Part shown: positions 631 through 64,000 of the stretch, piece by piece
How positions within the stretch are numbered: position 1 is the stretch's first letter
How the letters are laid out: every line of letters starts with the position of its first letter
Assembly (NCBI GenBank): GCA_030390025.1
Contig: CM059435.1
Coordinates: 53,568,001 to 53,632,000, forward strand
Reading direction: 5' to 3'
DNA from: Squalus acanthias
Lineage: Eukaryota
DNA: 64,000 nucleotides
Notes under the pieces: model-generated
Told to the model about the DNA's origin: nothing
Seen by the model: only the letters and a program-made list of their open reading frames with translations
Databases searched by the model: none
Program-made: the position numbers and the translations under genes

Positions 631-1012
631 AGCCTTTCTTTCTTTCTCTCTCCCACAGAGCGGTCGGCAGCGGGGAAGGAGGAGCGGACCTGGTTGGAGC
701 GGCAGAGGCCTGAGGTGAGTCATTAAACTCACCTACGTGGCCTTTTTCCCCAGCGGGGTAAGAGCTTCGCGGGATTTTTCAAAGGCAGGGGGCGGGGCCA
801 ATTCATTGGTACCCGTATATAGGTGGAGCGGTTGCTAAACCCGAGACACTACACTAGTAGTGACTCCCACCCTCCCACCTCGTCTAACCTTTAGGGGTAG
901 AGGGAATTTAAAAGGTAGGTTCGATTTTATATTTTGTTTTCAGGGACTTAACTCCTGGACCTAAGATAAATAAGTTTAAATTTTAGTAATAAAGTAACAT
1001 AAGGGTTAAGTC

Positions 1013-1957
1013 ATGACAGGAAGTCTCGGACCCGTTTCATGCTCCTCCTGTGCCATGTGGGAAACCAGGGACACTTCCAGTGTCCCTGACAACTACGTGT
1101 GCGGGAAGTGTGTCCAGCTGCAGCTCCTGACAGCCCGCATGGCGGTGCTGGAGCTGCGGGTGGACTCACTCTGGAGCATGCACGATGCCGAGAACTCGGT
1201 GAATCGCTCATTTAGTGAGTTGTCCACACCGCAGGTAAAGGCTAGGACAGACAGTGAATGGGTGACCAAGAAGCAGGGCAATATCAGGAAGGTAGTGCAG
1301 GAGTCCCCTGTGGTCATCTCCCTCCAAAACAGGTATGCCGCTTTGGATACTGTTGGGGGAGATGGCCTACCAGGGGAAGGCACCAGCAGCCAGGTTCATG
1401 GCACCATGGCTGGCTCTGCTGCACAGCAGGGCGGGAAAAAGAGTGGTAGGGCTATAGTGATAGGGGACTCAATTGTAAGGGGAATAGACAGGAGTTTCTG
1501 TGGCCGCAAACGAGATTCCAGGATGGTATGTTGCCTCCCTGGTGCAAGGGTCAAGGATGTCTCGGAGCGGCTGCAGAACATTCTGAAGAGGGAGGGTGAA
1601 CAGCCAGCTGTCGTGGTGCATGTAGGTACCAACGATATAGGTAAAAAGCGGGAAGAGGTCCTACAAGCAGAATTTAGGGAGCTAGGAGCTAAATTAAAAA
1701 GTAGGACCTCTAAGGTAGTAATCTCTGGATTGCTACCAGGGCCACGTGCTAATCAGAATAGAGAGAACACGATAGTGAGATTGAATACGTGGCTTGAGCA
1801 GTGGTGCAGGAGGGAGGGATTCAAATTCCTGAGGCATTGGAACCAGTTCTGGGGGAAGTGGGACCTGTACAAAAGGGACGGTCTGCACTTGGGCAGGACT
1901 GGAACCGATGTCCTCGGGGTAATATTTGCTAAAGCAGTTCGGGAGGATTTAAACTAA
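1013..1957 (+). CDS. CR1 ORF1p (zinc finger/leucine zipper plus SGNH esterase domain)
   Basis: CSSC...CGKC motif, heptad leucines, then SGNH blocks IVIGDS, PGA, HVGTND and DGLH. Uninterrupted 314 aa. Confidence 0.92.
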   Translation: MTGSLGPVSCSSCAMWETRDTSSVPDNYVCGKCVQLQLLTARMAVLELRVDSLWSMHDAENSVNRSFSELSTPQVKARTDSEWVTKKQGNIRKVVQESPVVISLQNRYAALDTVGGDGLPGEGTSSQVHGTMAGSAAQQGGKKSGRAIVIGDSIVRGIDRSFCGRKRDSRMVCCLPGARVKDVSERLQNILKREGEQPAVVVHVGTNDIGKKREEVLQAEFRELGAKLKSRTSKVVISGLLPGPRANQNRENTIVRLNTWLEQWCRREGFKFLRHWNQFWGKWDLYKRDGLHLGRTGTDVLGVIFAKAVREDLN

Positions 1958-2004
1958 TATGGCAGGGGAATGGGAACCTATGTAGCGAAACAGGGCGAAG
2001 TAAT

Positions 2005-4941
2005 ATGCAGTCAGAAACAAATGTTAGAAGGGTGAAAAACAATAGGGGAAGGCCGAGTAAACAAAGGCAAGAAACACAAAGGGCCATACTAAATCATAAG
2101 TCTAAAAGGACAAAGGATGTTAATAAAACAAGCCTAAAGGCTCTGTGTCTTAATGCAAGGAGTATCCGTAATAAGGTGGATGAATTGATTGTGCAAATAG
2201 ATGTTAACGGATACGATGTGATTGGGATTACAGAGACGTGGCTCCAGAACAATCAAGGCTGGGAACTGAACATCCAGGGGTATTCAACATTTAGAAAGGA
2301 TAGAATAAAAGGAAAAGGGGGTGGGGTAGCATTGCTGGTTAAAGAGGAGATTAATGCAATAGCAAGGAAGGACATCAGCTTGGAGGATGTGGAATCAATA
2401 TGGGTTGAGCTGCAGAACACCAAAGGGCAGAAAACGTTAGTGGGAGTTGTGTACAGACCTCCAAACAGCAGTAGTGAGGTGGGGGAGGGTATGAAACAGG
2501 AAATCAGAGGTGCGTGCAAAAAAGGCACGGCAGTTATCATGGGTGACTTTAATATGCATATAGATTGGGCTACTCAAACTGGAAGCAACACGGTGGAGGA
2601 GGATTTCCTGGAGTGTTTAAGGGATGGTTTCCTAAACCAATATGTTGAGGAACCAACTCGAGGGGAGGCCATCCTGGACTGGGTGTTGTGTAATGAGGAA
2701 GGACTAATCAGCAATCTTGTGGTACGAGGCCCCCTGGGGAAGAGTGACCATAGTATGGTGGAGTTCTACATTAGGATGGAGAAGGAAACAGTTAAGTCAG
2801 AGACCATGGTCCAGAACTTAAATAAGGGCAACTTTGAGGGTATGAGGCGTGAATTGGTGAGGTTAGATTGGCAAGCGATATTTAAGGGGCTATCAGTGGA
2901 AGGGCAATGGCAGACATTTAGAGATCGCATGGATGAACTACAACAATTGTACATCCCGGTCTGGCGTAAAAGTAAAAAAGGGAAGGTGGCTCAACCATGG
3001 CTAACAAGGGAAATCAGGGATAGTATTAAAACCAAGGAAGTTGCATACAAATTGGCCAGATGTAGCAGCAAACCCGGGGACTGGGAGAACTTCAAAACTC
3101 AGCAGAGGAGGACGAAGGGTTTGATTAGGGCAGGGAAAATAAAATATGAAAGGACGCTTGCAGAGAACATTAAAATGGACTGCAAAAGCTTCTATAAATA
3201 TGTAAAAAGAAAGAGGTTAGTAAAAACAAACGTAGGTCCCCTGCAGTCGGAAACAGGGGAAGTCGTAATGGGGAACAAGGAAATGGCAGATCAATTGAAC
3301 AAGTACTTTGGTTCGGTGTTTACTGTGGAGGACACACACAACCTGCCGGAAATAAAAGGGGTCAGAGGATCTGGTAAGAGGGAGGAGCTGAGGGAAATCC
3401 TTATTAGACGGGAAAAGGTATTGGGAAAATTGATGGGACTGAAGGCTGAAAAATCCCCGGGGCCTGATGGTCTGCATCCCAGAGTACTTAAGGAGGTGGC
3501 CTTGGAAATAGTGAATGCATTGACGATCATTTTCCAACATTCCTTAGACTCTGGATCAGTTCCGATGGAGTGGAGGGTGGCTAATGTAACCCCTCTTTTT
3601 AAAAAAGGAGGGAGGGAGAAAGCAGGGAATTATAGACCGGTCAGCCTGACATCGGTCGTGTGTAAAATGATGGAAGCAATTATTAAAGATGTCATAACAG
3701 ACCATTTGGAAAGTGGCGACATGATAGGTCCAAGTCAGCATGGATTTGTGAAAGGGAAATCATGCTTGACAAATCTTCTGGAATTTTTTGAGGATGTTTC
3801 CAATAGGGTGGACAGGGGGGAACCAGTAGATGTGGTGTATTTGGACTTTCAGAAGGCCTTCGACAAGGTCCCACACAAGAGATTGGTGTGCAAAGTTAAA
3901 GCACATGGGATTGGGGGTAATGTGTTGACGTGGATTCAGAACTGGTTGGCACACAGGAAACAAAGAGTAGGAGTAAATGGGTACTTTTCAGAATGGCAGG
4001 CAGTGACCAGCGGGGTACCGCAGGGTTCGGTGCTGGGACCCCAGCTGTTTACATTATATATTAATGATTTGGACGAAGGGATTAAATGTAATATCTCCAA
4101 ATTTGCGGATGACACTAAATTGGGAGGCAGTGTAAACAATGAGGAGGATGCTAGGAGGCTACAGAGTGACTTGGACAGGTTGGGTGAATGGGCAAATGTA
4201 TGGCAGATGAAGTACAATGTGGATAAATGTGAGGTTATCCACTTTGGTGGTAAAAATAGAGAGGCGGACTATTACCTGAATGGTGGCAGATTAGGGAAAG
4301 GGGAGGTGCAACGAGACCTGGGTGTCATGGTACATCAGTCACTGAAGGTGGGAATGCAAGTGCAGCAGGCAGTCAAGAAAGCAAACGGAATGATGGCCTT
4401 CATAGTAAGGGGATTTGAGTACAGGAGTAGGGAGGTGATGCTGCAGTTGTACAGGGCCTTGGTGAGGCCACACCTGGAGTATTGTGCGCAGTTTTGGTCT
4501 CCTAACTTAAGGAAGGACATTCTTGCTATTGAGGGAGTGCAGCGAAGGTTCACTAGATTGATTCCTGGGATGGCCGGTCTGACATATCAAGAAAGATTGG
4601 GTCAACTGAACTTGTATCCTCTGGAGTTCAGAAGAATGAGGGGGGATCTTATAGAGACATTTAAAATCCTGACTGGTTTAGACAAATTAGATGCGGGCAG
4701 AATGTTCCCAATGTTAGGGAAAACTAGAACCAGGGGTCACAGTCTAAGGATTAAGGGGAAGCCATTTAAGACTGAGCTGAGGAGGAACTTCTTCACCCAG
4801 AGAGTGGTGAATCTATGGAATTCTCTTCCACAGAAGGTTGTTGAGGCCAGTTCGCTAAATATATTCAAAAGGGAGTTAGATATAACACTCACAACTAGGG
4901 GGATCAAGGGGTATGGCGAGAAAGCAGGAATGGGGTACTGA
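2005..4941 (+). CDS. CR1 ORF2p (APE endonuclease plus reverse transcriptase)
   Basis: NARS, ITETW, GDFN and SDH endonuclease motifs; [14 protein letters not shown] and FADD RT motifs. Uninterrupted 978 aa. The frame is open upstream to 1933. Confidence 0.95.
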   Translation: MQSETNVRRVKNNRGRPSKQRQETQRAILNHKSKRTKDVNKTSLKALCLNARSIRNKVDELIVQIDVNGYDVIGITETWLQNNQGWELNIQGYSTFRKDRIKGKGGGVALLVKEEINAIARKDISLEDVESIWVELQNTKGQKTLVGVVYRPPNSSSEVGEGMKQEIRGACKKGTAVIMGDFNMHIDWATQTGSNTVEEDFLECLRDGFLNQYVEEPTRGEAILDWVLCNEEGLISNLVVRGPLGKSDHSMVEFYIRMEKETVKSETMVQNLNKGNFEGMRRELVRLDWQAIFKGLSVEGQWQTFRDRMDELQQLYIPVWRKSKKGKVAQPWLTREIRDSIKTKEVAYKLARCSSKPGDWENFKTQQRRTKGLIRAGKIKYERTLAENIKMDCKSFYKYVKRKRLVKTNVGPLQSETGEVVMGNKEMADQLNKYFGSVFTVEDTHNLPEIKGVRGSGKREELREILIRREKVLGKLMGLKAEKSPGPDGLHPRVLKEVALEIVNALTIIFQHSLDSGSVPMEWRVANVTPLFKKGGREKAGNYRPVSLTSVVCKMMEAIIKDVITDHLESGDMIGPSQHGFVKGKSCLTNLLEFFEDVSNRVDRGEPVDVVYLDFQKAFDKVPHKRLVCKVKAHGIGGNVLTWIQNWLAHRKQRVGVNGYFSEWQAVTSGVPQGSVLGPQLFTLYINDLDEGIKCNISKFADDTKLGGSVNNEEDARRLQSDLDRLGEWANVWQMKYNVDKCEVIHFGGKNREADYYLNGGRLGKGEVQRDLGVMVHQSLKVGMQVQQAVKKANGMMAFIVRGFEYRSREVMLQLYRALVRPHLEYCAQFWSPNLRKDILAIEGVQRRFTRLIPGMAGLTYQERLGQLNLYPLEFRRMRGDLIETFKILTGLDKLDAGRMFPMLGKTRTRGHSLRIKGKPFKTELRRNFFTQRVVNLWNSLPQKVVEASSLNIFKRELDITLTTRGIKGYGEKAGMGY

Positions 4942-5033
4942 GGTAGCATGTTCAGCCATGAACGCATTGAATGGCGGTGCAGGCTCGAAGGACCGAATGG
5001 TCTACTCCTGTACCTATTTTCTATGTTTCTATG

Positions 5034-6555
5034 TAACAAAGACATGGATGAGAGTTTCAGCAGCAGATGAGCTGAGGCGGAGGCAGAGTTGGTCGATGTT
5101 ACGGAGGTAGAACTAGGTGGTCTTAGTGATGGAGCGGATATGTGGTCGGCAGTTCCTTTCAGGGTCAAGTACGACACCAAGGTTGCGAACAGTCTGGTTC
5201 AGCATCAGACAATTGCCAGGGAGATGATGGAGTCAGTGGATAGGAAATGGAGTTTGTGGTGGGGACCGAAGACAACGGCTTCGGTCTTCCCAATATTTAA
5301 TTGGAAGAAATTTCTGCTCATCCGGTACTGGATGTTGGAAAAGCAGTGTGACAATTTAGAGACAGTGGAGGGGTCGAGAGAAGTAGTAGTGAGGTAGAAA
5401 GTACATGTGGAAACTGACACTATGTTTTTGGATGATGTCACCGAGGGGCAGCATGTAGAAGAGAAATAGGAGGGGGCCAAGGATAGATCCTTGGGGAACA
5501 CCAGAAGTGTCGGTGCGGGAGCGGGAAGAGAAGTCATTGCAGGTGATTCTCTGGCTACGACTGGATAGATCAGAATGGAACCAGGCGAGGGCAGGTCCCA
5601 CCCAGCTGGATAACAGAGGAGAGGCGTTGGAGGAGGATGGTGTGGTCAACAATGTCAAAGGCTGCAGACAGGTCGAGAAGGATGAGGAGGAATAGTTTAC
5701 CATTGTCATAGTCACACAGGATGTCATTTGTGACTTTGATAAGAGCCATTTCGGTACTGTGGCAGGGCGGAAACCTGATTGGAGGGATTCAAACATGAAG
5801 TTCCGGGAAAGATGGGCACAGATTTGGGAGGCGACAGCATGTTCAAGGACTTTGGAGAGGAATGTGAGAAGTAAGAAGTGTGACTTCTCACATTTGTCCA
5901 CCCCAGTCCAACACCGGCATCTCCACATTTTGGAGAGGAAAGAGAGGTTGGAGATGGGGCAGTAGTTTGCAAGGATGGAGAGATCAAGGGTTGGTTTCTG
6001 AGGAGAGGGGTAATGACGGCAGATTTGAAAGAGAGGGGGACAGTCCCTGAGGAGAGAGAACCATTAAAAATATCAGCTAACATGAGAGCCAGGAAGGGAA
6101 GTTGTGTGGTCAGCAGTTTGGTGGGAACAGGGTTGGGGGAGCAGGAGGTGGGTCTCATGGATGAGCTCGGCGAGGCCATGAGGAGAGATAGGAGAGAAAC
6201 TAGAGAAAGATGTGAGTTCAGGCTAGGGAAGGGGGGAGCCTTAGAGGAAGTTTGGCCCGGTGGGCTAAGGGAAGGGAGGGAAGTGGCAGAGGCAGTTGAA
6301 CGAATGGTCTTAATCTTAGTGACAATAAAGTCCATGAGCTCCTCGCACTTATTGTTGGAGGTGAGGGTGGAGGAGGCAGGGGCGAGGGGTTTAACAAGAT
6401 GGTTTGCAGTAGAGAAGAGAATCCGGGGATTATCTTTGCATTCCAGGATGATCCTGGAACAGTGAGCAGTTTAGGCCGAGGAGAGCAGGACCCAATAGTG
6501 CTTTATGTGGTCCAGCCAGATCTGGCGGTGAATGGCTAGATCTGGCGGTAAACCA
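5034..6555 (-). mobile_element. L2 LINE, upstream RT part (decayed)
   Basis: Frameshifted RT fragments [22 protein letters not shown] and FFQLNIGKTEAVVFG. Continues the element at 79..630. Confidence 0.85.
5863..5928 (+). mobile_element. Tiny Penelope-type 3' end insertion with a 5' hairpin
   Basis: 12-bp TSD tttggagaggaa (5851-5862 and 5929-5940). The tail tttgtccaccccagtccaacaccggcatctcc is shared with the 42225 and 44552 copies. Confidence 0.75.
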
Positions 6556-10133: not shown

Positions 10134-10685
10134 ATTGACATTGGACGCAGAAAGTACGTCTGCTTCCACTGTACAAATTATTCTTTTCGCATCCTCTCCT
10201 TACAGCATCAGTAATGTGCAGTCAGAGCCGACATTACATACCGTGAATTCAGACACACAGGCCTAGAAATTCGGGTTTTTAACGTCACCCGTTATCGCCA
10301 TAGTTGGGCGAAAAAATGGCAGCCACTGCTCTTCTGCCAGCGGGTCCCGCGGCGGCCGCCATTTTGGGATGGCTGGCAGCGCAGACGATAGAAGCGATCG
10401 CTCAAGGGATCACTTGATGCCCGATCTGTGACATTGGATTTTGCCACTGCACTTACCAGGATGCCTGAACAATGTTGAGAAGCAGGGAGGAGGCTGCAGC
10501 CGTGGTATTTAAAGGGATCATCAGCAAACATTTGCACCTGACATGGTTATGTAGTTTGACTGGCTCTGTGCTACTTTCTGCAACTCCACCAGCTTTACTA
10601 ACTTCTTTCAAGGTTCTAAGGTAACAGAGCGTGTTGTTGCAAGTGCAGAACCCCATCCTCATTTAAAGGCTTCTGCTCACAACAC

Positions 10686-11822
10686 TTGCTCACAGTCATG
10701 GGGGCTGTACTGGCAGTCAACCTCGCGTTCAAGGATCTTTGGCAGAGGGAGCGGAGGCAGCAAAGAAGACAGGACGATGCGCTCAGAGGGAGGAGGAGGA
10801 GGGCCATGAGGGCTCTCAACAGGAGGTCTTACCCACCTAGGCACTTCTCCTACCTCCACTTAAGTGAAGAGCAGTGCATTAGGAGGCTGTGCTTCACCAA
10901 GGAGGTGGTCACAGAACTCTGCCACCTCCTGCAACCAGACCTGCAGCCTGACAGCAGGGTGACCACGGCTCTCCCAGTGACAGTCAAGGTCACTGTGACC
11001 CTCAATTTTTTCGGCAGCAGATCCTTCCAGTCTGCAGCAGGAGATATAGCTAACATTCAGGGAGGTCACTGAGGCTCTCCACACCAGAAGGGACTACGCT
11101 TTTGTCTTCTCTCTGAGCAGAGAGAAGCAGAATGAGTGCGCATGTGGCTTTGCCAGGATAGGGGCTTCCCCATGGTGCAGGGTGCCATTGAATGCAAACA
11201 CATGGTTTTACGGGCGTCGCATAACAATCCGGAGATCTTCTGTAACCGCAAAGGCTACCAATCGCTTAATGTGCAGGTGGTGTGCGACCACGCTCAGCGA
11301 TTCCTCAATGTCCATGCCCACTATCCTAGCAGCAGCCATAATGCCTTCATCCTACGTCAGTCCGTGTGCCAGCAATCTTCCAGCCACCACAGCAAACTTG
11401 AGGGTGGTTGCTCGGAGACAAGGGTGTCCACCTGGCTCATGACTCCTCACCGCAACCCCAACACTCGTGCTCAGCACTCGTATAATGAGAGCCTTGCTTC
11501 TTCCAGGAACATCATCGAGACCATCGGCCTACTGAAGCAACGGTTCCGCTGGCTTGACCATTCGGGAGGAGCCCTCCAGTACTCAGCGGAGCGGGTGTCC
11601 CATTTCCTGGTGGTCTGCTGCATGCTTCACAACTTGGTCATCATGAGGGCACAGCCCTTGCCACCAGGGATTGTGGGACCGCCTCAGGAGGAGGACGAGG
11701 CAGAGGAGGAAGAGGACAAGGAGCAAGAGGAAAAGGAAGAGGAGGGTGGGAGGAGGCAGGCAGCCAATCCTCCTTCCGGATGGGCTGTCAGTGAATGGCT
11801 CATCAGACTCCGATTCCAATGA
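10686..11822 (+). pseudogene. Harbinger (HARBI1-like) DDE transposase, frameshifted
   Basis: Motifs ALPVTVKVTVTLNFF, GFPMVQGAIECKH, NRKGYQSLNVQVVCD, IETIGLLKQRFR and CCMLHN, then an acidic tail. Split over several frames. Confidence 0.85.
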
Positions 11823-16541: not shown

Positions 16542-18140
16542 GGAAAAAAGCAGGAAATGGAACAGATTTTTAAGCAAGTGTAGGAGCTGGGAAAGGGGGG
16601 AGGGGATGAAAGAACAAAAGGGAAAGTCTGTGATAGGATAGAAGGCAGGAGAGGTTAAGAGACATTAAGAGATATTCAAGGCAAAAGGAGATGGTAATGG
16701 GACAGGTTAAGAAACAAAAGATGGCTCTAGATGAAGTGAAATTGCGCTGGCAGAATGAAAGACAGCTGCCATGTGGGAGAGAAGAAAAGAAAACACAAAC
16801 AAAAAAAAAGTGTGGAAAAATATATATATGATAGGGGCAGAGGTTATGATCTGAAATTGTTGAACTCTATGTTGAGTCCAGAAGGCTGTAAAGTGCCTAA
16901 TTGAAAGATGAGGTGCTGTTCCTCGAGCTTACGTTGAGCTTCAGTGGAACAGTGTAATAGGCCGAGGACAGTGAGGTCTGAGTGGGAGTGGAGCGGAGAA
17001 TTAAAGTGACAGGTGACCGGAAGCTTGGGGTCCCCCTTAAGGACTGAACGGAGGTGTTCCGCAAAGCGGTCACCCAATCTGTGTTTGGTCTCCCCAATGT
17101 AGAGGAGACCGCATCGTGAGCAGCGAATACAGTATACTAAATTGCAAGAAGTACAAGTAAATCGCTGTTTCACCTGGAAGGGGTATTTGGGGCCCTGGAC
17201 AGTGGGAAGGGGGGAGGTATAAGGGCATGTGTTGCATCTCCTGCGCTTGCACGGGAAGGTGCCGGGCGAAGGGGAAGGGGTGTTGGGGGTGATAGAGGAG
17301 TGGGCCAGGGTGTCACGGAGGGAGCGGTCCCTTTGGAATGCTGAAAGGGGAGGTGAGGGGAAGATGTGTTTGGTGGTGGGATCACGCTGGAGGTGGCGGA
17401 AATGGCAGAGGATGATCCGTTGAATGTGGAGGCTGGTGGGCTGAAAGGTGAGGACAAGGGGAACCCTATTGTGGTTCCAGGAGGGAGGGGCAGGGATGAG
17501 GGCAGAAGTGTGGGAGATAGAACGGACACAGTCAAGGGCCGTGTCAACCACAGTAGAGGGGAATCCTCGGTTGAGGAAATAGGAAGACATGTCGGAAGCG
17601 CTGGTATGGAAGGTGGCATCGTCAGAGCAGATGCGGGGGAGACGGAGAAACTGGGAGAATGGAATAGCATCCTTACAGGAAGCGGGGTGTGAGGAAGTGT
17701 AGTCCAGGTAGCTGTGGGAATCAGTGGGCTTGTAGTGAATGTTTGTCAATAACCTATCCCCAGAGATGGAGACGGAGAAGTCGAGGAAGGGAAGGGAAGA
17801 GTCGGAGATGGACCATGTGAAGGTGAGGGAAGGGTGGAAATTGGAAGCAAAGTGAATGAAATTTTCTAGTTCAGGACGAGAGCAGGAAACGGCACTGATA
17901 CAGTCATCAATGTACCGGAAAAAGAGGTGAGGGAGGGGACCTGAGTAGGATTGGTACAAAGAATATTTCCACATATCCCACGAAAAGGCAGGCATAGCTA
18001 GGGCCCATGCGGGTCCCCATAGCAACACCCTTAATTTGGAGGAAGTGAGTGGAGTCAAAGGAGAAGTTGTTCAATGTGAGAACAAGTTCAGCCAGGCGGA
18101 GGAGGGCTGTGGTGGATGGGGACTGGTTGGGCCTTTGTTC

Positions 18141-22534: not shown

Positions 22535-25322
22535 CAACAACAGAAAATGCTGGAAACACTCAGCAGGTCAGGCAGCATCGTGGAGAGAGAAACAGAGTTA
22601 ACGTTTCAGGTCGATGATCCTTCGTCAGAACTGGAAAAAGTTGGAGAAGTAACAGATTTTAAGCAAGTGTGGGACAGGGAAAGCGGGGGGAGGAAAGAAC
22701 AAAAGGGGCGGTCTGTGATAAGGTGAAAGGCAGGAGTGGTTAAAAGACAAAAGGGATGATGGTACAAGGCAAATGGAGATGGTAATGGGACAAGTTAAGA
22801 AACAAAAGATGACTCTAGATGAGGTGTAAATGACAATAGCAGAATCATCAACAGCTGCCATGTGAGAGAGAAAAGAAAACATGGGGGCCGAGGTTATAGT
22901 CTGAAATTGTTGAACTCGATGTTGAGTCCAGAAGGCTGTAAAGTGCCTAATCGAAAGATGAGGTGCTGTTCCTCGGCTTACATTGAGCTTCATTGGAACA
23001 GTGTAAGAGGCCGAGGACGGTGAGGTCTGAGTGGGAGTGGAGCGGAGAATTAAAGTGACAGGCGACCGGAGGCTCGGGGTCACACTTATGGACTGAATGG
23101 AGGTGTTCCGCAAAGCGGTCACCCAATCTGTGTTTGGTCTCCCCAATGTAGAGGAGACCGCATCGTGAGCAGCGAATACAGTATACTAAATTGCAAGAAG
23201 TACAAGTAAATCGCTGTTTCACCTGGAAGGAGTGTTTGGGTCCCTGGATAGTGGGAAGCTAGGAGGTGAAAGGGCATGTGTTGCATCTCCTGCGCTTGCA
23301 CGGGAAGGTGCCGTGGGAAGGTGAAGGGGTTTTAGAGGAGTGGACCAGGGTGTTGCGGAGGGAGCGGTCCCTTCAGAATGTTGAAAGGGGAGGGGAGGGG
23401 AAGATGTGTTTGGTGGTGGGATCATGCTGGAGGTGGAGGAAATGGAGGAGGATGATCCGTTGAATGTAGAGGCTAGTGGGGTGAAAGGTGAGGACAAGGG
23501 GAACCCTATCGTGGTTCTGGGAGGGAGGGGAAGGGGTGAGAGCAGAAATACGGGAAATGGAACGGACACAGTCGAGGGCCATGTCAACCATGGTAGAGGG
23601 GAATCCTCGATTGAGGAAAAAGGAAGACATATCGGAAGCACTAGTATGGAAGGTGGCATCGTCAGAACAGATGCGGCGGAGACGCAGAAACTGGGAGAAT
23701 GGAATAGAGTCCTTACAGGGAGCGGGGTGGGAGGATGTGTAGTCCAGGCAGCTGTGGGAGTCAGTGGGCCTATAGTGGATATTTGTCGATAGCCTATCCT
23801 CAGAAATGGAGACAGAGAAGTCGAGGAAGGGAAGGGAAGAGTTGGAGATGGACCATGTGAAGGTGAGGGAAGGGTGAAAATTGGAAGCAAAGTGAATGAA
23901 ATTTTCTAGTTCAGGGTGAGAGCAGGAAACGGCACCGATACAGTCATCAATGTACTGGAAAAAGAGGTGAGGGAGGGGACCTGAGTAGGACTGGAACAAA
24001 GAGTGTTCCACATATCCCACGAAAAGGCAGGCATAGCTAGGGCCCATGCGGGTCCCCATAGCAACACCTTTAATTTGGAGGAAGTGAGTGGAGTCAAAGG
24101 AGAAGTTGTTCAATGTGAGAACAATTCAGCCAGGCGGAGGAAAGCTGTGGTGGATGTGGACTGTTGGGCCTCTGTTCAAGGAAGAAGTGGAGCGCCCTCA
24201 GGCCATCCTGGTGGGGGATGGAGGTGTAGAGGGATTGGACGTCCATAGTGAAAAGGAGACGGTTGGGGCCAGGAAACTGGAAACTGTTAAAGTGGCGGAG
24301 GGCATCAGATGAGTCGCGAATGTAGGTGGGAAGAGACTGGGCAAGGGGAGAAAAAATAGAGTCGAGATAGGAAGAAATCAGTTCCGTGGGGCAAGAACAG
24401 GCTGAAACGATGGGTCTACCAGGGCAGCCCTGTTTGTGGATCTTGGGAAGGAGGTAGAAGCGGGCTGTGCGGGTTTGGGGAACTATGAGGTTGGAGGCCA
24501 TGGAGGGAAGATCTCCAGAGGAGATGAGGTCAGTGACAGTCTTGGAAACAATGGCTTGATGTTTGGTAGTGGGGTCATGGTCCAGGGGGAGGTAGGAGGA
24601 GGTGTCGGGGAGTTGGCATTCAGCCTCCGCACGGTAGAGGTTGGTTTGCCAAACAACAACAGCACCACCCTTGTCAGCAGGTTTAATGACAATGTTAGGG
24701 TTGGATCGAAGAGAACGGAATGCTGAAAGTTCAGAAGGAGGTAGGTTGGAGTGAGCAGAGAAATTGAGACGGCTGATGTCACGCCGGCAGTTAGCAATGA
24801 AAAGATCAAGAGAGGGTAAGAGGCCAGAGGGAGGGGTCCAGGTAGAACGAGAATTCTGAAAGCGGGACAAAGGGGGGGAAGACTCCTGGCCAAAGAAGTG
24901 GGCATGGAGATTGAAGGCAACGGCAAAAGAGCTCGGCATCATGCCAAGCTTGAAATTCATTGAGATGGGGGCATAAGGGGATGAAGCTCAGACCTTTGCT
25001 GAGGACTGATCGTTTGGGGTCAGAGAGGGGAAGGTCAGAGGGGATAGTGAAAATACGGCAGGGGGTGAGATTGGAAGAAGGGATGGGGTCAGAGGAAAGT
25101 GAAGGGGAAGAAGGTTCTGGATGGGTGTTGGTGTCCAAGAGTTGTTGAAGCTTGTGATCCTTGACATCTGAAAGGAAGAAAAAAAGTTTTTTGTTGAAGC
25201 GTCGGATGAGGCGAAGAATGAAATGGAACTGTGGACCAGGACAGCTTTGAGCGTCAGTGCTGCTGAAGAGAGAGGTCGAGAGTGTTCATGTGGCGACGCA
25301 TCTTTAAACTTGGTGATGCTTT
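22535..25322 (-). mobile_element. Penelope-like element, near full length, frameshifted
   Basis: DKG motif (IKPADKGGAVVV), LPKIHK..PGRPIVS, MDVQSLYTSIPH, GVAMG, QYIDD and a GIY-YIG domain, spread over several frames. Confidence 0.9.
22596..22632 (-). ncRNA. Minimal hammerhead ribozyme motif
   Basis: agtt-CTGACGA-stem II (imperfect)-GAAA-cg-tt-aact on the minus strand. Confidence 0.6.
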
Positions 25323-32412: not shown

Positions 32413-32506
32413 CTGTTTCTCTCTCCACAGATGCTGCCTGACCTGCTGAGTATTTCCAGCATTTTCTGTTTTTATTTCAGATTTCCAGCATCCACAGTAT
32501 TTTGCT

Positions 32507-34380
32507 AACACTGACCCACTCCCAGGGACCCTCTGCAAATACTGACCCACTCCCAGGGACCCTCTGCAAATACTGACCCACTCCCAGGGACCCTCTGCAA
32601 ATACTGACCCACTCCCAGGGACCCTCTGCAAACACTGACCCACTCCCAGGGACCCTCTGCAAACACTGACCCATTCCCAGGGACCTTCTGCAAATACTGA
32701 CCCACTCCCAGGAACCCTCTGCAAACACTGACCCACTCCCAGGAACCCTCTGCAAACACTGACCCACTCCTAGGGACCCTCTGCAAATACTGACCCACTC
32801 CCAGGGACCCTCTGCAAATACTGACCCACTCCCAGGGACCCTCTGCAAATACTGACCCACTCCCAGGGACCCTCTGCAAACACTGACCCACTCCCAGGGA
32901 CCCTCTGCAAACACTGACCCATTCCCAGGGACCTTCTGCAAATACTGACCCACTCCCAGGAACCCTCTGCAAACACTGACCCACTCCCAGGAACCCTCTG
33001 CAAACACTGACCCACTCCTAGGGACCCGCTGCAAATACTGACCCACTCCCAGGAACCCTCTGCAAACACTGACCCATTCCCAGGGACCTTCTGCAAATAC
33101 TGACCCACTCCCAGGGACCCTCTGCAAACACTGACCCATTCCCAGGGACCCGCTGCAAATACTGACCCACTCCCAGGGACCTTCTGCAAATACTGACCCA
33201 TTCCCAGGGACCCTCTGCAAACACTGACCCATTCCCAGGGACCCTCTGCAAACACTGACCCACTCCCAGGGACCCTCTGCAAATACTGACCCATTCCCAG
33301 GGACCCTCTGCAAACACTGACCCATTCCCAGGGACCCTCTGCAAACACTGACCCACTCCCAGGGACCCTCTGCAAATACTGACCCATTCCCAGGGACCCT
33401 CTGCAAATACTGACCCACTCCCAGGGACCCTCTGCAAACACTGACCCATTCCCAGGGACCCTCTGCAAATACTGACCCATTCCCAGGGACCCCCAGCCAA
33501 TACTGACCCATTCCCAGGGACCCTCTGCAAACACTGACCCATTCCCAGGGACCTTCTGCAAATACTGACCCATTCCCAGAGACCCCCAGCCAATACTGAC
33601 CCATTCCCAGGGACCCTCTGCAAATACTGACCCACTCCCAGGGACCCCCCAGCCAATACTGACCCACTCCCAGGGACCTTCAGCCAATACTGACACACTC
33701 CCTGGGACCCTGTTGAAATACTGACACACTCCCTGGATCCCCTGTATATATTCACACACTCCCTGGATCCCCTGTAAATACTGACGCACTCCCTGGGACC
33801 CTGTTGAAATGGTAACACACTCCCAGGGACCCCCTGCAAATACTGATTCTCCCAGGGACCCCCTGCAAATACTGATTCTCCCAGGGACCCCCTGCAAGTA
33901 CTGACATTCCCAGGGACCCCCAGCCAATACTGACACACTCCCAGGGATCCCTGTGTACACTGACATACTCCCAGGGATTCCCTGCAAATACTGACACACT
34001 CCCTGGATCCCCTGTATATATTGAAACACTCCTGGATCACCTGTAAATACTGACACACTCCATGGGACCCTGTTGAAATACTGACACACTCCCTGGGACC
34101 CTCTTGAAATGGTGACACACTCCCAGGGACCCCCTGCAAATACTGATTCTCCCAGGGACCCCCTGCAAATAATAACACGCTCCCAGGGATCCTGTTGCAA
34201 TAATAACTCACTCCCAGGGACCCTCCTGCAGGTACTGACAAACTCTCAGGGACCCTCTGTATATACTGACACATTCCCAGGGACCCCCTGCAAAAACTGA
34301 CCGATTCCTGGGACCCTCTGAAAATACTAACGTAGTCACGGGAACCTTTTGCTAATATTAATACAATCCCAGGAATCCGT
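32507..34380. repeat. 31-bp minisatellite (aatactgacccactcccagggaccctctgca)n, degenerating rightwards
   Basis: Direct tandem repeats, homogeneous to about 33690 and diverged afterwards. Confidence 0.95.
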
Positions 34381-34923
34381 CTGAAATAAGATCCAGCAGA
34401 GAGTCTCAACTTCCCAAAGGGCCCTGTGTTACTGCAGGAAGTGGTTCCATCTGTCTACAGCATGGGAAGTAATGTGCTGCTACACCAACAAGTACAGAAC
34501 AATTCAGAAATTAAATGATTTCCAGGATGACGCGTGCTCCCAGTTTGAAACCTATGGCCTGCCAGTCCTCTTTCTTTATCACCTCCCCCTCCACCACTGC
34601 CAGCTTTCTCCCCTGTCCCGATGTCATTGACTCTCTTGGGTATGGCTCCATAGGTATCAGCAGCCCCTTGGTACCTTGTCAATGGTGCCATTCTGCATGT
34701 TTATTGGGTGACCGTTTGACCAATGGGGACATCACAGGAGAGCCCGATATGTTCTTGTCCCAACACGCGTGTGCTTCCAGTAACTGGATAACGGTCAAGA
34801 TGGCAGACTCTTTCTCATTTCCCCCTTACTAACCCAGGGTGCTGAGGCCAATTTTAATGCTTCTGCTGCCATCCTAACCAAGAGCTAATCCAGCGCAGGC
34901 TGGGAGTTGAACCTGAGACTCCC

Positions 34924-40452: not shown

Positions 40453-40627
40453 GACTCGACTCAGGCTAATGTGCAGCTCGAGCTCTGGCTCGCGTTCTAT
40501 TTCTGTCCCGCCCAGCGGGCCAGATGGAATGAACTGACGGGCCGTATTTTGCCCACCACTGCTCTAGAGCTACTGTCTCCTTTACTATACACACGCTGAC
40601 CCCGAGAGTTACCGTCTCCTCTAATAC

Positions 40628-42556
40628 ACACTGACCCTGGGCCGTGAGGGATATGACAGTGACTGACCCCGGGCCGTGTGGGATATGATAGTGACTGACC
40701 CTGGGCCGTGTGGGATATGACAGTGACTGACCCTGGGCCGTGTGGGATATGACAGTGACTGACCCCGGGCCGTGAGGGATATGACAGTGACTGACCCCGG
40801 GCCGTGTGGGATATGACAGTGACTGACCCTGGGCCGTGTGGGATATGACAGTGACTGACCCTGGGCCGTGTGGGATATGATAGTGACTGACCCTGGGCCA
40901 TGTGGGATGTGATAGTGACTGACCCTGGGCTGTGTGGGATATGATAGTGACTGACCCTGGGCTGTGTGGGATATGATGGTGACTGACCCTGGGCCATGTG
41001 GGATGTGATAGTGACTGACTCTGGGCCGTGTGGGATATGACAGTGACTGACCCTGGGCCGTGTGGGATGTGATAGTGACTGACCCTGGGCTGTGTGGGAT
41101 ATGACAGTGACTGACCCTGGGCCGTGTGGGATAAGATGGTGACTGACCCCGGGCTGTGTGGGATAAGATGGTGACTGACCCTGGGCCGTGTGGGATATGA
41201 CAGTGACTGACCCCGGGCTGTGTGGGATATGATAGTGACTGACCCTGGGCCATGTGGGATATGACAGTGACTGACCCTGGGCTGTGTGGGATATGACAGT
41301 GACTGACCTTGGGCCGTGTGGGATATGATAGTGACTGACCCCGGGCTGTGTGGGATATGATAGTGACTGACCCTGGGCTGTGTGGGATATGATGGTGACT
41401 GACCCTGGGCCGTGTGGGATATGACAGTGACTGACCCCGGGCTGTGTGGGATATGATAGTGACTGACCCTGGGCTGTGTGGGATATGATGGTGACTGACC
41501 CTGGGCCGTGTGGGATATGATAGTGACTGACCCTGGGCCGTGTGGGATATGACAGTGACTGACCCCGGGCTGTGTGGGATATGATAGTGACTGACCCTGG
41601 GCCGCGTGTGATATGACAGTGACTGACCCTAGGCCGTGTGGGATATGACAGTGACTGACCCCGGGCCGTGTGGGATATGATAGTGACTGACCCTGGGCCA
41701 TGTGGGATATGATAGTGACTGACCCTGGGCCGTGTGTGATATGATAGTGACTGACCCTGGGCCGTGTGGGATATGATAGTGACTGACCCTGGGCCGTGTG
41801 TGATATGACAGTGACTGACCCTGGGCCGTGTGGGATATGATAGTGACTGACCCTGGGCCGTGTGGGATATGACAGTGACTGACCCCGGGCCGTGTGGGAT
41901 ATGATAGTGACTGACCCTGGGCCATGTGGGATATGATAGTGACTGACCCTGGGCCATGTGGGATATGATAGTGACTGACCCTGGGCCGTGTGGGATATGA
42001 CAGTGACTGACCCCGGGCCGTGTGGGATATGATAGTGACTGACCCTGGGCCGTGTGGGATATGACAGTGACTGACCCTGGGCTGTGTGGGATATGACAGT
42101 GACTGACCCTGGGCCGTGTGGGATATGACAGTGACTGACCCTGGGCTGTGTGGGATATGATGGTGACTGACCCCGGGCTGTGTGGGATATGATAGTGACT
42201 GACCCTGGGCCATGTGGGATATGATGCGGAGATGCCGGTGTTGGACTGGGGTGGACAAAATTGAGAGGTCACACAACACCAGGTTATAGTCCAACCGTTT
42301 TATTTGAAATCACAAGCTTTCGGAGCTATCGATAGCTCCGAAAGCTTGTGATTTCAAATAAAACTGTTGGACTATAACCTGGTGTTGTGTGACCTCTCAA
42401 TCATGTGGGATATGACAGTGACTGACCCCGGGCCGCGTGTGATATGACAGTGACTGACCCCTGGCTGTGTGGGATGTGATCATGACTGACCCTGGGCCAT
42501 GTGGGATATGACAGTGACTGACCCCGGGCTGTGTGGGATATGATGGTGACTGACCT
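40628..42556. repeat. 32-bp minisatellite (gtgactgaccctgggccgtgtgggatatgaca)n
   Basis: Direct tandem repeats, interrupted at 42225-42401, ending about 26 nt before exon 3. Confidence 0.95.
42225..42401 (-). mobile_element. Penelope-type fold-back insertion with a 142-bp palindrome
   Basis: Palindrome 42260-42401 centred on gctatc|gatagc, plus a 35-nt unpaired tail. Flanked by catgtgggatatga on both sides. Confidence 0.8.
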
Positions 42557-53092: not shown

Positions 53093-54005
53093 TGTCAGTG
53101 GGTAGCGCTCTCGCCTCTGAGCCAGAAGGTCGTGGGTTCAATTACAACTCCAGAGACTTGAGCATGAAATCTAGGCTGACACTCCAGTGCAGTACTGAGG
53201 GAGTGCTGCACTGTCGGAGGGGCAGTGCTGAGGGAGCACTGCACTGTCGGAGGGGCAGTGCTGAGGGAGCGCTGCACTTTCGGAGGGGCAGTGCTGAGGG
53301 AGCGCTGCACTGTCGGAGGGGCAGTACTGAAGGAGCGCTGCACTGTCGGAGGGGCAGTACTGAGGGAGCGCTGCACTGTCGGAGGTGCAGTACTGAGGGA
53401 GTGCTGCACTGTCGGAGGGGCAGTGCTGAGGGAGCGCTGCACTGTCGGTGAGGGAGTGCTGCACTGTCGGAGGTGCAGTACTGAGGGAGTGCTGCACTGT
53501 CGGAGGGGCAGTACTGAGGGAGCGCTGCACTGTCGGAGGTGCAGTACTGAGGGAGTGCTGCACTGTCGGAGGGGCAGTACTGAGGGAGCGCTGCACTGTC
53601 GGAGGGGCAGTACTGAGGGATTGCTGCACTGTCGGAGGGGCAGTGCTGAGGGAGCGCTGCACTGTCGGAGGGGCAGTGCTGAGGGAGTGCTGCACTGTCA
53701 GAGGTGCCGTCTTTTGGATGAGATTTAAACTGAGGCCCCATCGGCCCTCTTGGGTGGACATAAAAGATCCCACAGGGGTGTTCTCCCGGTGTCCTGGCCA
53801 ACCTTTATGCCTCAACCAACACCTAAAACGGATTATCTGATCACTTATTTCATTGATGTTTGTGGGAGCTTGCTGTGCACAAATTAGCTGCCGCGTTGCC
53901 TACATTACAACAGTGACTACACTTCAATAGTACTTAATTGGCTGTAATGCGCTTTGAGACATCCTGAGGATGTGAAAGGCGCTATATAAACACAAGTTTT
54001 TTTTG
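53093..54005 (+). mobile_element. SacSINE1-like SINE with an internal 33-bp tandem expansion (about 53188-53705)
   Basis: Head and tail match the 21876 copy. The unit gcagtactgagggagcgctgcactgtcggaggg is repeated about 15 times. Confidence 0.85.
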
Positions 54006-59093: not shown

Positions 59094-61454
59094 CTGTACT
59101 GAGAGAGATTGTCCTGTGTGTATTGTACCGAGAGAGATTGTCCTGTGTGTATTGTACTGAGAGATATTGTCCTGTGTTTATTGCACTGAGAGGGATTGTC
59201 CTGTGTTTATTGCACTGAGCGAGATTGTCCTGTGTGTATTGTACTGAGAGAGATTGTCCTGTGTTTATTGTACTGAGAGATTGTCCTGAGTGTATTGTAC
59301 TGAGAGAGATTGTCCTGAGTGTATTGTACTGAGAGAGATTGTCCTGTGTGTATTGTACTGAGAGATTGTCCTGTGTTTATTGTACTGAGAGAGATTGTCC
59401 TGTGTGTATTGGACTGAGAGAGATTGTCCTGTGTGTATTGTACTGAGAGAGAATGTCCTGTGTGTATTGTACTGAGAGATTGTCCTGTGTTTATTGTACT
59501 GAGAGAGATTGTCCTGTGTTTATTGTACTGAGAGAGATTGTCCTGTGTTTATTGTACTGAGAGAGATTGTCCTGTGTGTATTGGACTGAGAGAGATTGTC
59601 CTGTGTGTATTGTACTGAGAGAGATTGTCCTGTATGTATTGTACTGAGAGAGATTATCCTGTGTTTATTGTACTGAGAGAGATTGTCCTGTGTTTATTGT
59701 ACTGAGAGAGATTGTCCTGTGTTTATTGTACTGAGAGAGATTGTCCTGTGTGTATTGTACTGAGAGAGATTGTCCTGTGTTTATTGTACTGAGAGAGATT
59801 GTCCTGTATGTATTGTACTGAGAGAGATTGTACTGTGTTTATTGTACTGAGAGATTGTCCTGTGTGTATTGTACTGAGAGATTGTCCTGTGTTTATTGTA
59901 CTAAGAGAGATTGTCCTGTGTTTATTATACTGAGAGAGATTGTCCTGTGTGTATTGTACTGAGAGAGATTGTCCTGTGTGTATTGTACTGAGAGATTGTC
60001 CTGTGTGTATTGTACTGAGAGGGATTGTCCTGTGTTTATTATACTGAGAGAGATTGTCCTGTGTGTATTGTACTGAGAGATTGTCCTGTGTGTATTGTAC
60101 TGAGAGAGATTGTCCTGTGTTTATTATACTGAGAGAGATTTTCCTGTGTGTATTGTACTGAGAGAGATTGTCCTGTGTGTATTGTACTGAGAGATTGTCC
60201 TGTGTGTATTGTACTGAGCGAGATTGTCCTGTGTTTATTGTACTGAGAGAGATTGTCCTGTGTGTATTATAGTGAGAGAGATTGTCCTGTGTATTGTACT
60301 GAGAGATTGTCCTGTGTGTATTGTAGTGAGAGAGATTGTCCTGTGTGTATTGTACTGAGAGAGATTGTCCTGTGTATTGTACTGAGAGATTGTCCTGTGT
60401 GTATTATAGTGAGAGAGATTGTCCTGTGTATTGTACTGAGAGATTGTCCTGTGTTTATTGTACTGAGAGATTGTCCTGTGTGTATTATAGTGAGAGAGAT
60501 TGTCCTGTGTATTGTACTGAGAGATTGTCCTGTGTTTATTGTACTGAGAGGGATTGTCCTGTGTTTATTGTACTGGGAGAGATTGTCCTGTGTTTATTGT
60601 ACTGAGAGATTGTCCTGTGTGTATTGTACTGAGAGATTGTCCTGTGTGTATTGTACTGAGAGAGATTGTACTGAGAGAGATTGTCCTGTGTGTATTGTAG
60701 TGAGAGAGATTGTCCTGTGTTTATTGTACTGAGAGAGATTGTCCTGTGTGTATTGTACTGAGAGAGATTGTCCTGTGTGTATTGTACTGAGAGAGATTGT
60801 CCTGTGTTTACTGTACTGAGAGAGATTGTCCTGTGTGTATTATACTGAGAGAGATTGTCCTGTGTTTATTGTACTGAGAGATTGTCCTGTGTGTATTGTA
60901 GTGAGAGAGATTGTCCTGTGTTTATTGTACTGAGAGAGATTGTCCTGTGTGTATTGTACTGAGCGAGATTGTCCTGTGTGTATTGTACTGAGAGAGATTG
61001 TCCTGTGTTTATTGTACTGAGAGATTGTCCTGTGTGTATTGTACTGAGAGAGATTGTCCTGTGTGCATTTTACTGAGAGAGATTGTCCTGTGTGTATTGT
61101 ACTGAGAGAGATTGTCCTGTGTGTATTGTACTAAGAGAGATTGTCCTGTGTGTATTGTACTGAGAGATTGTCCTGTGTGTATTCTACTGAGCGAGATTGT
61201 CCTGTGTGTATTGTACTGAGAGAGATTGTCCTGTGTGCATTTTACTGAGAGAGATTGTCCTGTGTGTATTGTACTGAGAGAGATTGTCCTGTGTGTATTG
61301 TACTGAGAGATTGTCCTGTGTGTATTGTACTGAGAGGGATTGTCCTGTGTTTATTATACTGAGAGAGATTGTCCTGTGTTTATTGTACTGAGAGATTGTC
61401 CTGTGTTTATTGTACTGAGAGATTGTCCTGTGTGTATTGTACTGAGGGGGATTG
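59094..61454. repeat. 29-bp minisatellite with 27- and 25-bp variants (gagagagattgtcctgtgtgtattgtact)n
   Basis: About 2.36 kb of direct tandem repeats. Confidence 0.95.
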
Positions 61455-61714: not shown

Positions 61715-61844
61715 GTAAGTACACAAGAGATCCTTGGGTCTTCAGGGAATTTTAAAGCCCTGTTTTAATGCAGATACTGAATACTCGTCTGACTAATTTT
61801 CTCCCCATTTCTCCTAAAGTGCTGAGGGTACAGTTCCATGGGCA

Positions 61845-62196
61845 CGGGTCATCCTCCATTACCTCATCCTCGGGTCATCCTCCATTACCTCATCCTCGGG
61901 TCATCCTCCATTACCTCATCCTCGGGTCATCCTCCATTACCTCATCCTCGGGTCATCCTCCATTACCTCATCCTCGGGTCATCCTCCATTACCTCATCCG
62001 CGGGTCATCTTCCATGACCTCAACCTCGGGTCATCTTCCATGACCTCATCCTCGGGTCATCCTCCATTACCTCATCCTCGGGTCATCCTCCATTACCTCA
62101 TCCTCGGGTCATCTTCCATGACCTCATCCTCGGGTCATCTTCCATTACCTCATCCTCGGGTCATCCTCCATTACCTCATCCTCGGGTCATCTTCCA
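61845..62196. repeat. 26-bp minisatellite (cgggtcatcctccattacctcatcct)n
   Basis: Direct tandem repeats. Confidence 0.93.
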
Positions 62197-63136
62197 TCCC
62201 CATGCTGGTTCCTGCGGTGTCGCCGGGCTGGTTCCTGCGGTGTCCCCGGGCTGGTTCCTGCGGCGTCCCCGGGCTGGTTCCTGCGGTGTCCCCGGGCTGG
62301 TTCCTGCGGTGTCCCCGGGCTGTTTCCTGCGGTGTCCCCGGGTTGGTTCCTGCGGTGTCCCCGGGCTGGTTCCTGCGGTGTCCCCGGGCTGGTTCCTGCG
62401 GTGTCCCCGGGCTGGTTCCTGCGGTGTCCCCGGGCTGGTTCCTGCGGTGTCCCCGGGCTGGTTCCTGCGGTGTCCCCATGCTGGTTCCTGCGGTGTCCCC
62501 ATGCTGGTTCCTGCGGTGTCCCCGGGCTGGTTCCTGCGGCGTCCCCGGGCTGGTTCCTGCGGTGTCCCCGGGCTGGTTCCTGCGGTGTCCCCATGCTGGT
62601 TCCTGCGGTGTCCCCGGGCTGGTTCCTGCGGTGTCCCCATGCTGGTTCCTGCGGCGTCCCCGGGCTGGTTCCTGCGGCGTCCCCGGGCTGGTTCCTGCGG
62701 TGTCCCCGGGCTGGTTCCTGCGGTGTCCCCATGCTGGTTCCTGCGGTGTCCCCGGGCTGGTTCCTGCGGTGTCCCCGGGCTGGTTCCTACGGTGTCCCCG
62801 GGCTGGTTCCTGCGGCGTCCCCGGGCTGGTTCCTGCGGCGTCCCCGGGCTGGTTCCTGCGGTGTCCCCGGGCTGGTTCCTGCGGTGTCCCCGGGCTGGTT
62901 CCTGCGGTGTCCCCGGGCTGGTTCCTGCGGTGTCCCCATGCTGGTTCCTGCGGTGTCCCCATGCTGGTTCCTGCGGCGTCCCCGGGCTGGTTCCTGCGGC
63001 GTCCCCGGGCTGGTTCCTGCGGCGTCCCCGGGCTGGTTCCTGCGGTGTCCCCATGCTGGTTCCTGCGGCGTCCCCGGGCTGGTTCCTGCGGCGTCCCCGG
63101 GCTGGTTCCTGAGGTGTTCCCCCGCTGGTTCCTGCT
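62197..63136. repeat. 23-bp GC/CpG-rich minisatellite (ccccgggctggttcctgcggtgt)n
   Basis: About 40 direct tandem units abutting the 26-bp array. Confidence 0.93.
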
Positions 63137-63139
63137 GTA

Positions 63140-64000
63140 TTCAGGGAACTATAGTCAGCTTAACATTGGTGTTAGGAAAAATAATGGAATCCCCACTAAA
63201 AGAGAAAATAGAAGAACATCTAGAAACCAAAAATATGATAATGAATAGTCAGCATGGATTTCAAAAAGGGAAAGTCTTGCTTGTCCAATCTTATTGAATT
63301 TTTTGAAGACGTAACAGAGAGAATAGACAAGGATAATGCAGTAGATGTAATTTATCTAGATTTTCAAAAGGCCTTCGAGAAGGTACCACATAATAGACCT
63401 CTGAATAAGGTCAGAGAATGCGGAGTCAGGGGACAAGTAGCAGAATGGATTGCTGGCTGGCTTCAGGACAGAAAGCAGGGAGTAGGAGTAAAGGGTAGCT
63501 ATTCGCCGTGGCAGAAGGTGGGTAGTGGAGTTCCACAAGGATCAGTGCTGGGACCACTGCTGTTCACAATTTACATTAACGATTTAGACTTTGGAATCAA
63601 AAACAATTTCTAAATTTGTGGATGACACCAAATTGGGGGGGGTGTGGGGGGGATAGTTAGTACTGAGGAGGACTGCAACAAATTACAGGCGGACATTAAT
63701 AAACTTGCAGAATGGGCATATAATTGGCAAATGAAATTCAACACAGATAAATGTGAGGTATTACATTTTGGTAGGAAGAATAGGGAGGTCACTTATTACT
63801 TGGAGAGTGCGAATCTAGGTGGGGTAGAGGAACAAAGGGATCTCGGAGTACAAATACACAAATCACTAAAAGTAGCGACAAAGGTTAACAAGGCCATAAA
63901 GAAAGCAAACCAGGTACTAGGGTTTATTTCTAGAGGGATAGAATTGAAAAGTAATGAAGTTATGCTAAACCTGTATTGAACCTTGGTTAGACCACACTTG
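63140..64000 (+). mobile_element. Decayed CR1 RT fragment (runs off the window)
   Basis: [21 protein letters not shown] and WQMKFN, with frameshifts. Confidence 0.88.

Follow-up and report, generated by a model that had tools for sequence, protein, structure and literature searches.

A conserved slippery heptamer at the ORF1/ORF2 junction of a Squalus acanthias CR1 element and its probable role in -1 frameshifting

How the second open reading frame (ORF2) of long interspersed nuclear elements (LINEs) is reached by ribosomes is described as an open question (PMC3894237; here and below, articles are cited by PMC number). Among retrotransposons, the CR1 group dominates in most vertebrate species (PMC13343379). 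The question is taken up here for a stretch of 64,000 nt from Squalus acanthias (GCA_030390025.1, contig CM059435.1, positions 53,568,001 to 53,632,000, forward strand; hereafter the window), which contains a full-length CR1-type LINE whose ORF1 ends in a slippery heptamer immediately followed by a stop codon, with ORF2 lying in the -1 frame. We show that this feature is real and that its nucleotides themselves are conserved among distant CR1 lineages of vertebrates. From these comparisons we consider it likely that -1 programmed ribosomal frameshifting at the heptamer yields a 1,309-aa fusion of esterase, endonuclease and reverse transcriptase (RT).

The junction of the two frames

The features of the junction, all on the plus strand, are the following:

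1013..1957, plus strand: ORF1, 314 aa, with an N-terminal Cys motif and an SGNH esterase; C-terminus Leu-Asn-stop
1930..1932, plus strand: TAA, the last stop of the -1 frame upstream, which confines any shift to the final eight codons of ORF1
[quoted passage not shown]
1948..1954, plus strand: slippery heptamer U UUA AAC, at which a -1 shift is predicted; register X XXY YYZ relative to ORF1
1955..1957, plus strand: ORF1 stop TAA, directly 3' of the heptamer; the junction reads GAT TTA AAC TAA
1954..2136, plus strand: -1-frame linker from the shift site to the endonuclease, about 60 codons, low complexity
2005..2007, plus strand: in-frame ATG, subfamily-specific

A first-pass annotation of this DNA had given the positions of the heptamer, the ORF1 stop and the upstream TAA, together with their register and the passage of the -1 frame through the ATG at 2005, and all of these were reproduced. 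The -1 frame carries 16 stops along ORF1, the final one at 1930; it opens 15 nt upstream of the heptamer and remains open from 1933 to 4941. The heptamer at 1948-1954 is the only one within ORF1 that stands in register, and the slippery site does sit, as the annotation had held, in the sole short overlap of the two frames. A shift of -1 at this position would give a fusion of 1,309 aa. The heptamer alone is unremarkable, as TTTAAAC occurs 17 times in the window when both strands are counted, and conservation is consequently the real test.

In the mechanism that we propose, a fraction of the ribosomes would slip back one base at the heptamer and continue into an esterase-endonuclease-reverse transcriptase fusion, and most would release the plain ORF1 protein. 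The fusion would be the main source of ORF2 protein, and a fixed, high ratio of ORF1p to ORF2p would result, as in gag/gag-pol frameshifting. More speculatively, the pause might come from the stop codon in the ribosomal A site together with a G-rich element 7 nt farther on, rather than from a pseudoknot, and this element might act bound by protein or in a G-quadruplex-like form.

Conservation of the heptamer and of the -1 register

At least six families (A to F), with 52-100% identity over the ORF1 end, came from searches of the same genome, and a metagenome scan added further lineages at 26-48% identity. The scan yielded 28 loci, 19 of which were inspected at the junction, several ending before the ORF1 end; seven of its lineages we take to be bird-type, one locus (L070) holds an esterase element that lacks the motif, and another (L087) is unrelated. 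Own-genome searches with strict E-value cut-offs gave no matches, viral contigs searched for homologs gave none, and five weak matches from a genome-contig search were left unused. Longer homologs were also sought, and of the 14 proteins obtained one was a ray copy that the set already contained. From this genome and the metagenome contigs we chose 16 lineage representatives (17-84% amino-acid identity), picked among motif-bearing loci and sharing ancestry, so that counts over them are not independent trials.

The end of ORF1 was visible in 118 loci, one of which is the window's own copy again, and 115 of them have N-TTAAAC followed by a stop; the first base was T in 113, G in one (L062) and C in one. 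Two of the three misses are single-copy changes and the third is a different esterase element. Four other loci were cut short and 24 gave no match. Among the representatives, the final Leu of ORF1 is always TTA (16/16), a codon used in 3 of 62 cases at five other conserved Leu columns, and the final Asn is always AAC (16/16), against 8 AAT to 5 AAC at another conserved Asn column. The first base of the heptamer is T in 15 and G in one. A stop follows in all 16, its type being free (TAA 8, TAG 7, TGA 1), and in 14 the -1 frame is closed by a stop no more than 15 nt upstream of the heptamer. The nucleotide-level conservation of the heptamer thus exceeds what the protein needs (TTA 16/16 vs 3/62). 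The sole stable lineage variant, G UUA AAC in L062, preserves the form of a shift site: U_UUA_AAC is listed as one of the heptamers most prone to shifting, with G_UU(A) as a natural variant (PMC5009743).

At the locus of this variant (L062:180-900) lies a distant element in its own right. Its junction is G UUA AAC + TAG, it shares the G-run downstream and its -1 frame is open, and it may mark the reach of the signal beyond the families studied here.

Conservation extends to the register. Linkers differ in length from 30 to 90 codons across lineages, and intact copies keep ORF2 in the -1 frame. This frame is open from the heptamer in 39/43 copies of family A, 14/14 of family D, 21/22 of family E (a sample in which 14 copies are in-frame fused, 12 of these having been retrieved because of their long frames) and 16/18 further F-type copies (20 sampled, 2 not parsed). 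Family F copies that lie in the +1 frame trace back to private indels of old copies, which differ among those aligned; of the further copies that could be scored, 16 of 18 have an open -1 frame.

The start codon behaves differently. The ATG at 2005, taken in the first-pass annotation as the start of ORF2, is present in 39/39 open family-A copies and absent at that position from families B to E, and is therefore a subfamily feature rather than a general start. In all 14 family-D copies the -1 frame is open and the endonuclease is reached without an intervening ATG; the same holds for 20 of the 21 open family-E copies, and family C likewise has no in-frame ATG there. In D and E, both young families, the first Met lies at codon 156 and 178, respectively, vs an endonuclease that begins at codon 42, and thus more than 110 codons inside the latter. 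Where linker ATGs do occur they stand at codons 4, 7, 16, 18, 19, 22 and 28, a scatter that matches chance in a linker of 30-90 codons. The check proposed with the original annotation, that the heptamer with its synonymous positions and the -1 register be kept across families while this ATG is not, was thus passed.

The G-run and the alternatives to frameshifting

A second conserved feature lies 3' of the stop:

1965..1974, plus strand: conserved G-rich element, candidate stimulator; GGGG then GGG, without conserved base pairing

Counting from the first base of the stop, G occupies positions +10 and +11 in 16/16 representatives and +12 and +13 in 15/16. In 11/16, the heptamer is followed at a distance of 10 nt (7 nt from the stop) by a run of at least four G; in four more this run begins at 7-8 nt. 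The codon at +11 to +13 is GGG in 14/16 vs 31 of 101 background Gly codons, and third-codon positions within the run are G in 16/16 vs 29% in the background; values so far above background indicate that the constraint acts on nucleotides. The structural predictions for the element disagree: ViennaRNA gives a G-quadruplex in 5/16 representatives, the window not among them, and our own G4Hunter-style score is at least 1.2 in 14/16, with 1.04 for the window. The usual spacer between a slippery site and its stimulator is 5-9 nt, and a G-run 7 nt past the stop fits this spacing if the A site is occupied by the stop codon. From this we speculate that ribosomes slip while termination is slow, with the G-rich element as a helper. 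A natural G-quadruplex stimulator was anticipated, though not known, in 2016 (PMC5009743).

Several observations weigh against a frameshift. RNA 3' of the heptamer in the window folds no better than shuffled sequence (z +1.36 and +0.70, nested folds only), which bears out the earlier remark that no convincing pseudoknot lies downstream. Among the representatives, nested folding gave z of -2 or less in 2/16, with differing folds, and no conserved hairpin. A hairpin or pseudoknot 5-9 nt downstream, typical of -1 sites though not universal, was therefore not found, in a search limited to nested folds at short range. About half of the lineages, that of the window included, do have an in-frame linker ATG, and it is present in all 39 open family-A and all 16 open young F-type copies. 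Older copies are often off register, the -1 frame being kept in 3/12 of family B and 7/15 old F copies. To these points should be added the relatedness and motif-based choice of the representatives, and a compositional caveat at the ORF1 end given below. Finally, reinitiation is the accepted route to ORF2 in L1 and SART1 (PMC10275272, PMC2881922).

Termination-reinitiation, chiefly in an AUG-independent form, is accordingly the main rival. Ribosomes would terminate at the end of ORF1 and, at an AUG or another codon close by, begin anew in the -1 frame, the conserved motif being a termination or restart signal. The stop kept in 16/16 representatives and the linker ATG of several lineages are in keeping with this, and the caliciviral case of reinitiation tolerates mutated start codons (PMC10275272, PMC2881922). 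Against it, the representatives have no AUG overlapping the stop and no near-cognate start at a shared position, the first 15 codons lacking any such codon in 6/16, and an in-frame ATG lies within 15 codons of the ORF1 stop in 2/16. The UGGGA core of a termination upstream ribosome-binding site (TURBS), sought 40-90 nt upstream of the stop, is missing in 5/16 and stands elsewhere at varying distances; in the window's family UGGGA lies 96 nt upstream, where it codes for Trp-Asp. Reinitiation also does not foresee an X XXY YYZ heptamer 5' of the stop, and we regard it as unlikely.

Far less probable is a constraint at the protein level, in which the C-terminal Leu-Asn of ORF1p would overlap the N-terminal Phe-Lys-Leu of an ORF2p made in some other way, with codons fixed by coding in two frames. 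Leu and Asn are indeed invariant in a 37-sequence alignment, whose rows were largely chosen for that ending. The fold, however, has no need of this tail, because the match to 4c1b, a solved homologous esterase of 171 residues, goes no farther than position 307 in a profile of 311, and Leu-Asn is missing from the C-termini of teleost homologs. Furthermore, a ribosome must have entered the -1 frame beforehand to translate Phe-Lys-Leu, and in 14/16 representatives a stop 3-15 nt upstream closes that frame, with no start in between. In two stingray proteins (P0032 and P0097) the junction is read through as Gly-Phe-Lys-Leu, the -1 translation of the same letters.

The ORF1 proteins also speak for frameshifting. 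A Leu-Asn C-terminus is found in 62 of 126 ORF1 homologs, and these come from named sharks, rays and the coelacanth, from two frogs and from others; the rest mostly look partial, fused, or like teleost esterases with other ends. The residue before Leu-Asn offers a further view of the nucleotide level. It takes 12 different values, and Glu, Lys, Gln, Met or Trp, whose codons never end in U, appear there in just 1 of 62 proteins, as compared with 38/62 and 25/62 at the next two positions. As positions -6, -7 and -9 are likewise poor in these residues (3/62 each), we take this test as supportive rather than decisive, and this is the caveat announced above.

In family E (for instance L124, L128 and L132-L143) a G8 tract lies just 5' of the heptamer, unstable in length and biased towards expansion. 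A hand count over 100 listed copies of 220 matches gave 68 native tracts, 16 with one extra base, 4 with one base fewer and 12 with at least two extra. One extra base joins ORF1 to ORF2, in single frames of up to 1,290 aa. A replicating fused subfamily was considered and rejected, as 14 fused copies do not group apart from 8 native ones (7 changes vs 6.8 when shuffled), and the fused copies are read as recurrent slips of the tract rather than as progeny of an active fused master, with no support either way for frameshifting. The tract and the 16 copies fused by one extra base are also what could favour a correction at the RNA level, by polymerase slippage on G or by splicing, from which the fusion would arise by ordinary translation; this is just as improbable as the protein constraint, since a tract of the G8 type is absent from the family of the window and from most others, fused copies form no clade, and the stop ends in AG in just half of the lineages, so that there is no conserved splice acceptor. 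Contigs from two public runs, whose source we guess to be RNA, cover the junction in one ungapped piece, and none of the joints listed for them crosses it; this is too weak a sign to speak for expression or against splicing.

Frameshifting at the heptamer therefore stays our preferred reading. The proposal of a fusion made in this way, first voiced for the single intact copy in the window, is supported by the sequence tests, and the signal is that of a whole CR1 lineage and not of this copy alone. As a tentative extension, which we think less likely than not, canonical CR1 elements of jawed vertebrates may in general produce a Gag-Pol-like fusion RT by a pseudoknot-free -1 shift that combines a shifty stop with the conserved G-rich element, protein-bound or as a G-quadruplex.

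The element, its surroundings and known systems

Two further features delimit the element:

631..5033, plus strand: full-length CR1-type LINE, limits set by eye, nested in an older L2-like LINE on the opposite strand
5018..5033, plus strand: 3' tail of two 8-nt repeats, without poly(A)

The CR1 insertion divides the L2-like LINE into pieces at 188-630 and 5034-6470 on the minus strand, and the flanks of this older LINE left of 631 and right of 5033 rejoin as one ORF2 motif. No obvious target-site duplication was seen in the flanks of 631 and 5033. ORF1 matches Pfam Lipase_GDSL_2 (PF13472, E 5.9e-13) and, by profile, the LINE ORF1 esterase PDB 4c1b (E 2.1e-40), its nearest named homologs being those of sharks and rays; ORF2 matches Exo_endo_phos (PF03372, E 3.2e-14) and RVT_1 (PF00078, E 6.5e-35). 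A short tandem repeat at the 3' end in place of poly(A) is a hallmark of CR1. The element thus has an SGNH esterase in ORF1, APE and RT in ORF2, and a 3' tandem repeat, as esterase-ORF1 CR1 elements do, and its architecture and sequence motifs place it probably in CR1 and not in L2.

Other repeats share the window. Further truncated pieces of CR1 ORF2 lie at 13037, 17949, 19449 and 48466. Judged by their motifs, fragments resembling a Harbinger-type transposase occupy 10620-11822, and Penelope-like RT and GIY-YIG fragments lie on the minus strand at 16844-18070 and 22625-25285. Long minisatellite arrays give spurious repetitive open frames at 32477-34454, 40466-42309, 53095-53899, 59723-60732 and 61818-63297. 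Beyond the window, five CR1 copies of two families (L011, L026, L027, L028 and L054) carry an element of 740-910 bp that has terminal inverted repeats and, as it seems, a 3-bp duplication; it is inserted, apparently in both orientations, at one shared site at the endonuclease start (about window 2142-2146). This suggests a target-specific non-autonomous DNA transposon, which we presume to be Harbinger-like. Two CR1 ORF1 proteins, P0008 and P0095, are filed under the names of Pseudomonas aeruginosa and a flatworm parasite, and these labels likely reflect contamination of public records by host DNA.

Our literature search found no description of a CR1 slippery site; it did not cover the founding CR1 papers, in which an earlier passing suggestion is possible. 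The available text of the frameshifting review PMC5009743 does not contain 'CR1', the excerpts of PMC13343379, PMC2734521, PMC4316615, PMC3905857 and PMC4255032 do not mention a CR1 frameshift or slippery site, and those of PMC5006619 add nothing on frameshifting in LINEs. The conserved shift site offers a precise and cheap test of how CR1 ORF2 is translated. If frameshifting is confirmed, the N-termini of CR1 ORF2 proteins are mis-annotated, a membrane-associated esterase is covalently joined to the endonuclease-RT, and vertebrate genomes contain thousands of coronavirus-type slippery sites with an unusual stimulator.

In its architecture of SGNH ORF1, APE and RT in ORF2, and short tandem-repeat tail, the element resembles the esterase-ORF1 CR1 elements of vertebrates such as chicken and turtle (PMC13343379). 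L1 and SART1, for whose ORF2 reinitiation has been described (PMC3894237, PMC5972666, PMC10275272, PMC2881922), likewise have a bicistronic LINE RNA in which ORF2 output depends on translation of ORF1. In SART1, however, an overlapping UAAUG is used, and in L1 the spacer measures 63 nt (PMC3894237, PMC10275272), whereas in CR1 the frames overlap, the AUG is not conserved and the shift-site heptamer is. A frameshifting LINE has a precedent in TRE5-A and TRE3-A of Dictyostelium, in which a -1 frameshift is required for translation of ORF2, according to a figure legend of a review (PMC5911963); compared by that description, these are also APE-type non-LTR elements, but they belong to the L1 clade, live in an amoeba and have an unrelated ORF1. 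The closest likeness in the signal itself is to the ORF1a/1b junction of coronaviruses and arteriviruses and to retroviral gag-pol, which use the same class of heptamer with the polymerase in the -1 frame (PMC5009743). CR1 differs from these systems in being a non-LTR retrotransposon, in having a G-run where they have a hairpin, none that is conserved having been found in CR1, and in the stop codon that abuts the heptamer in every lineage.

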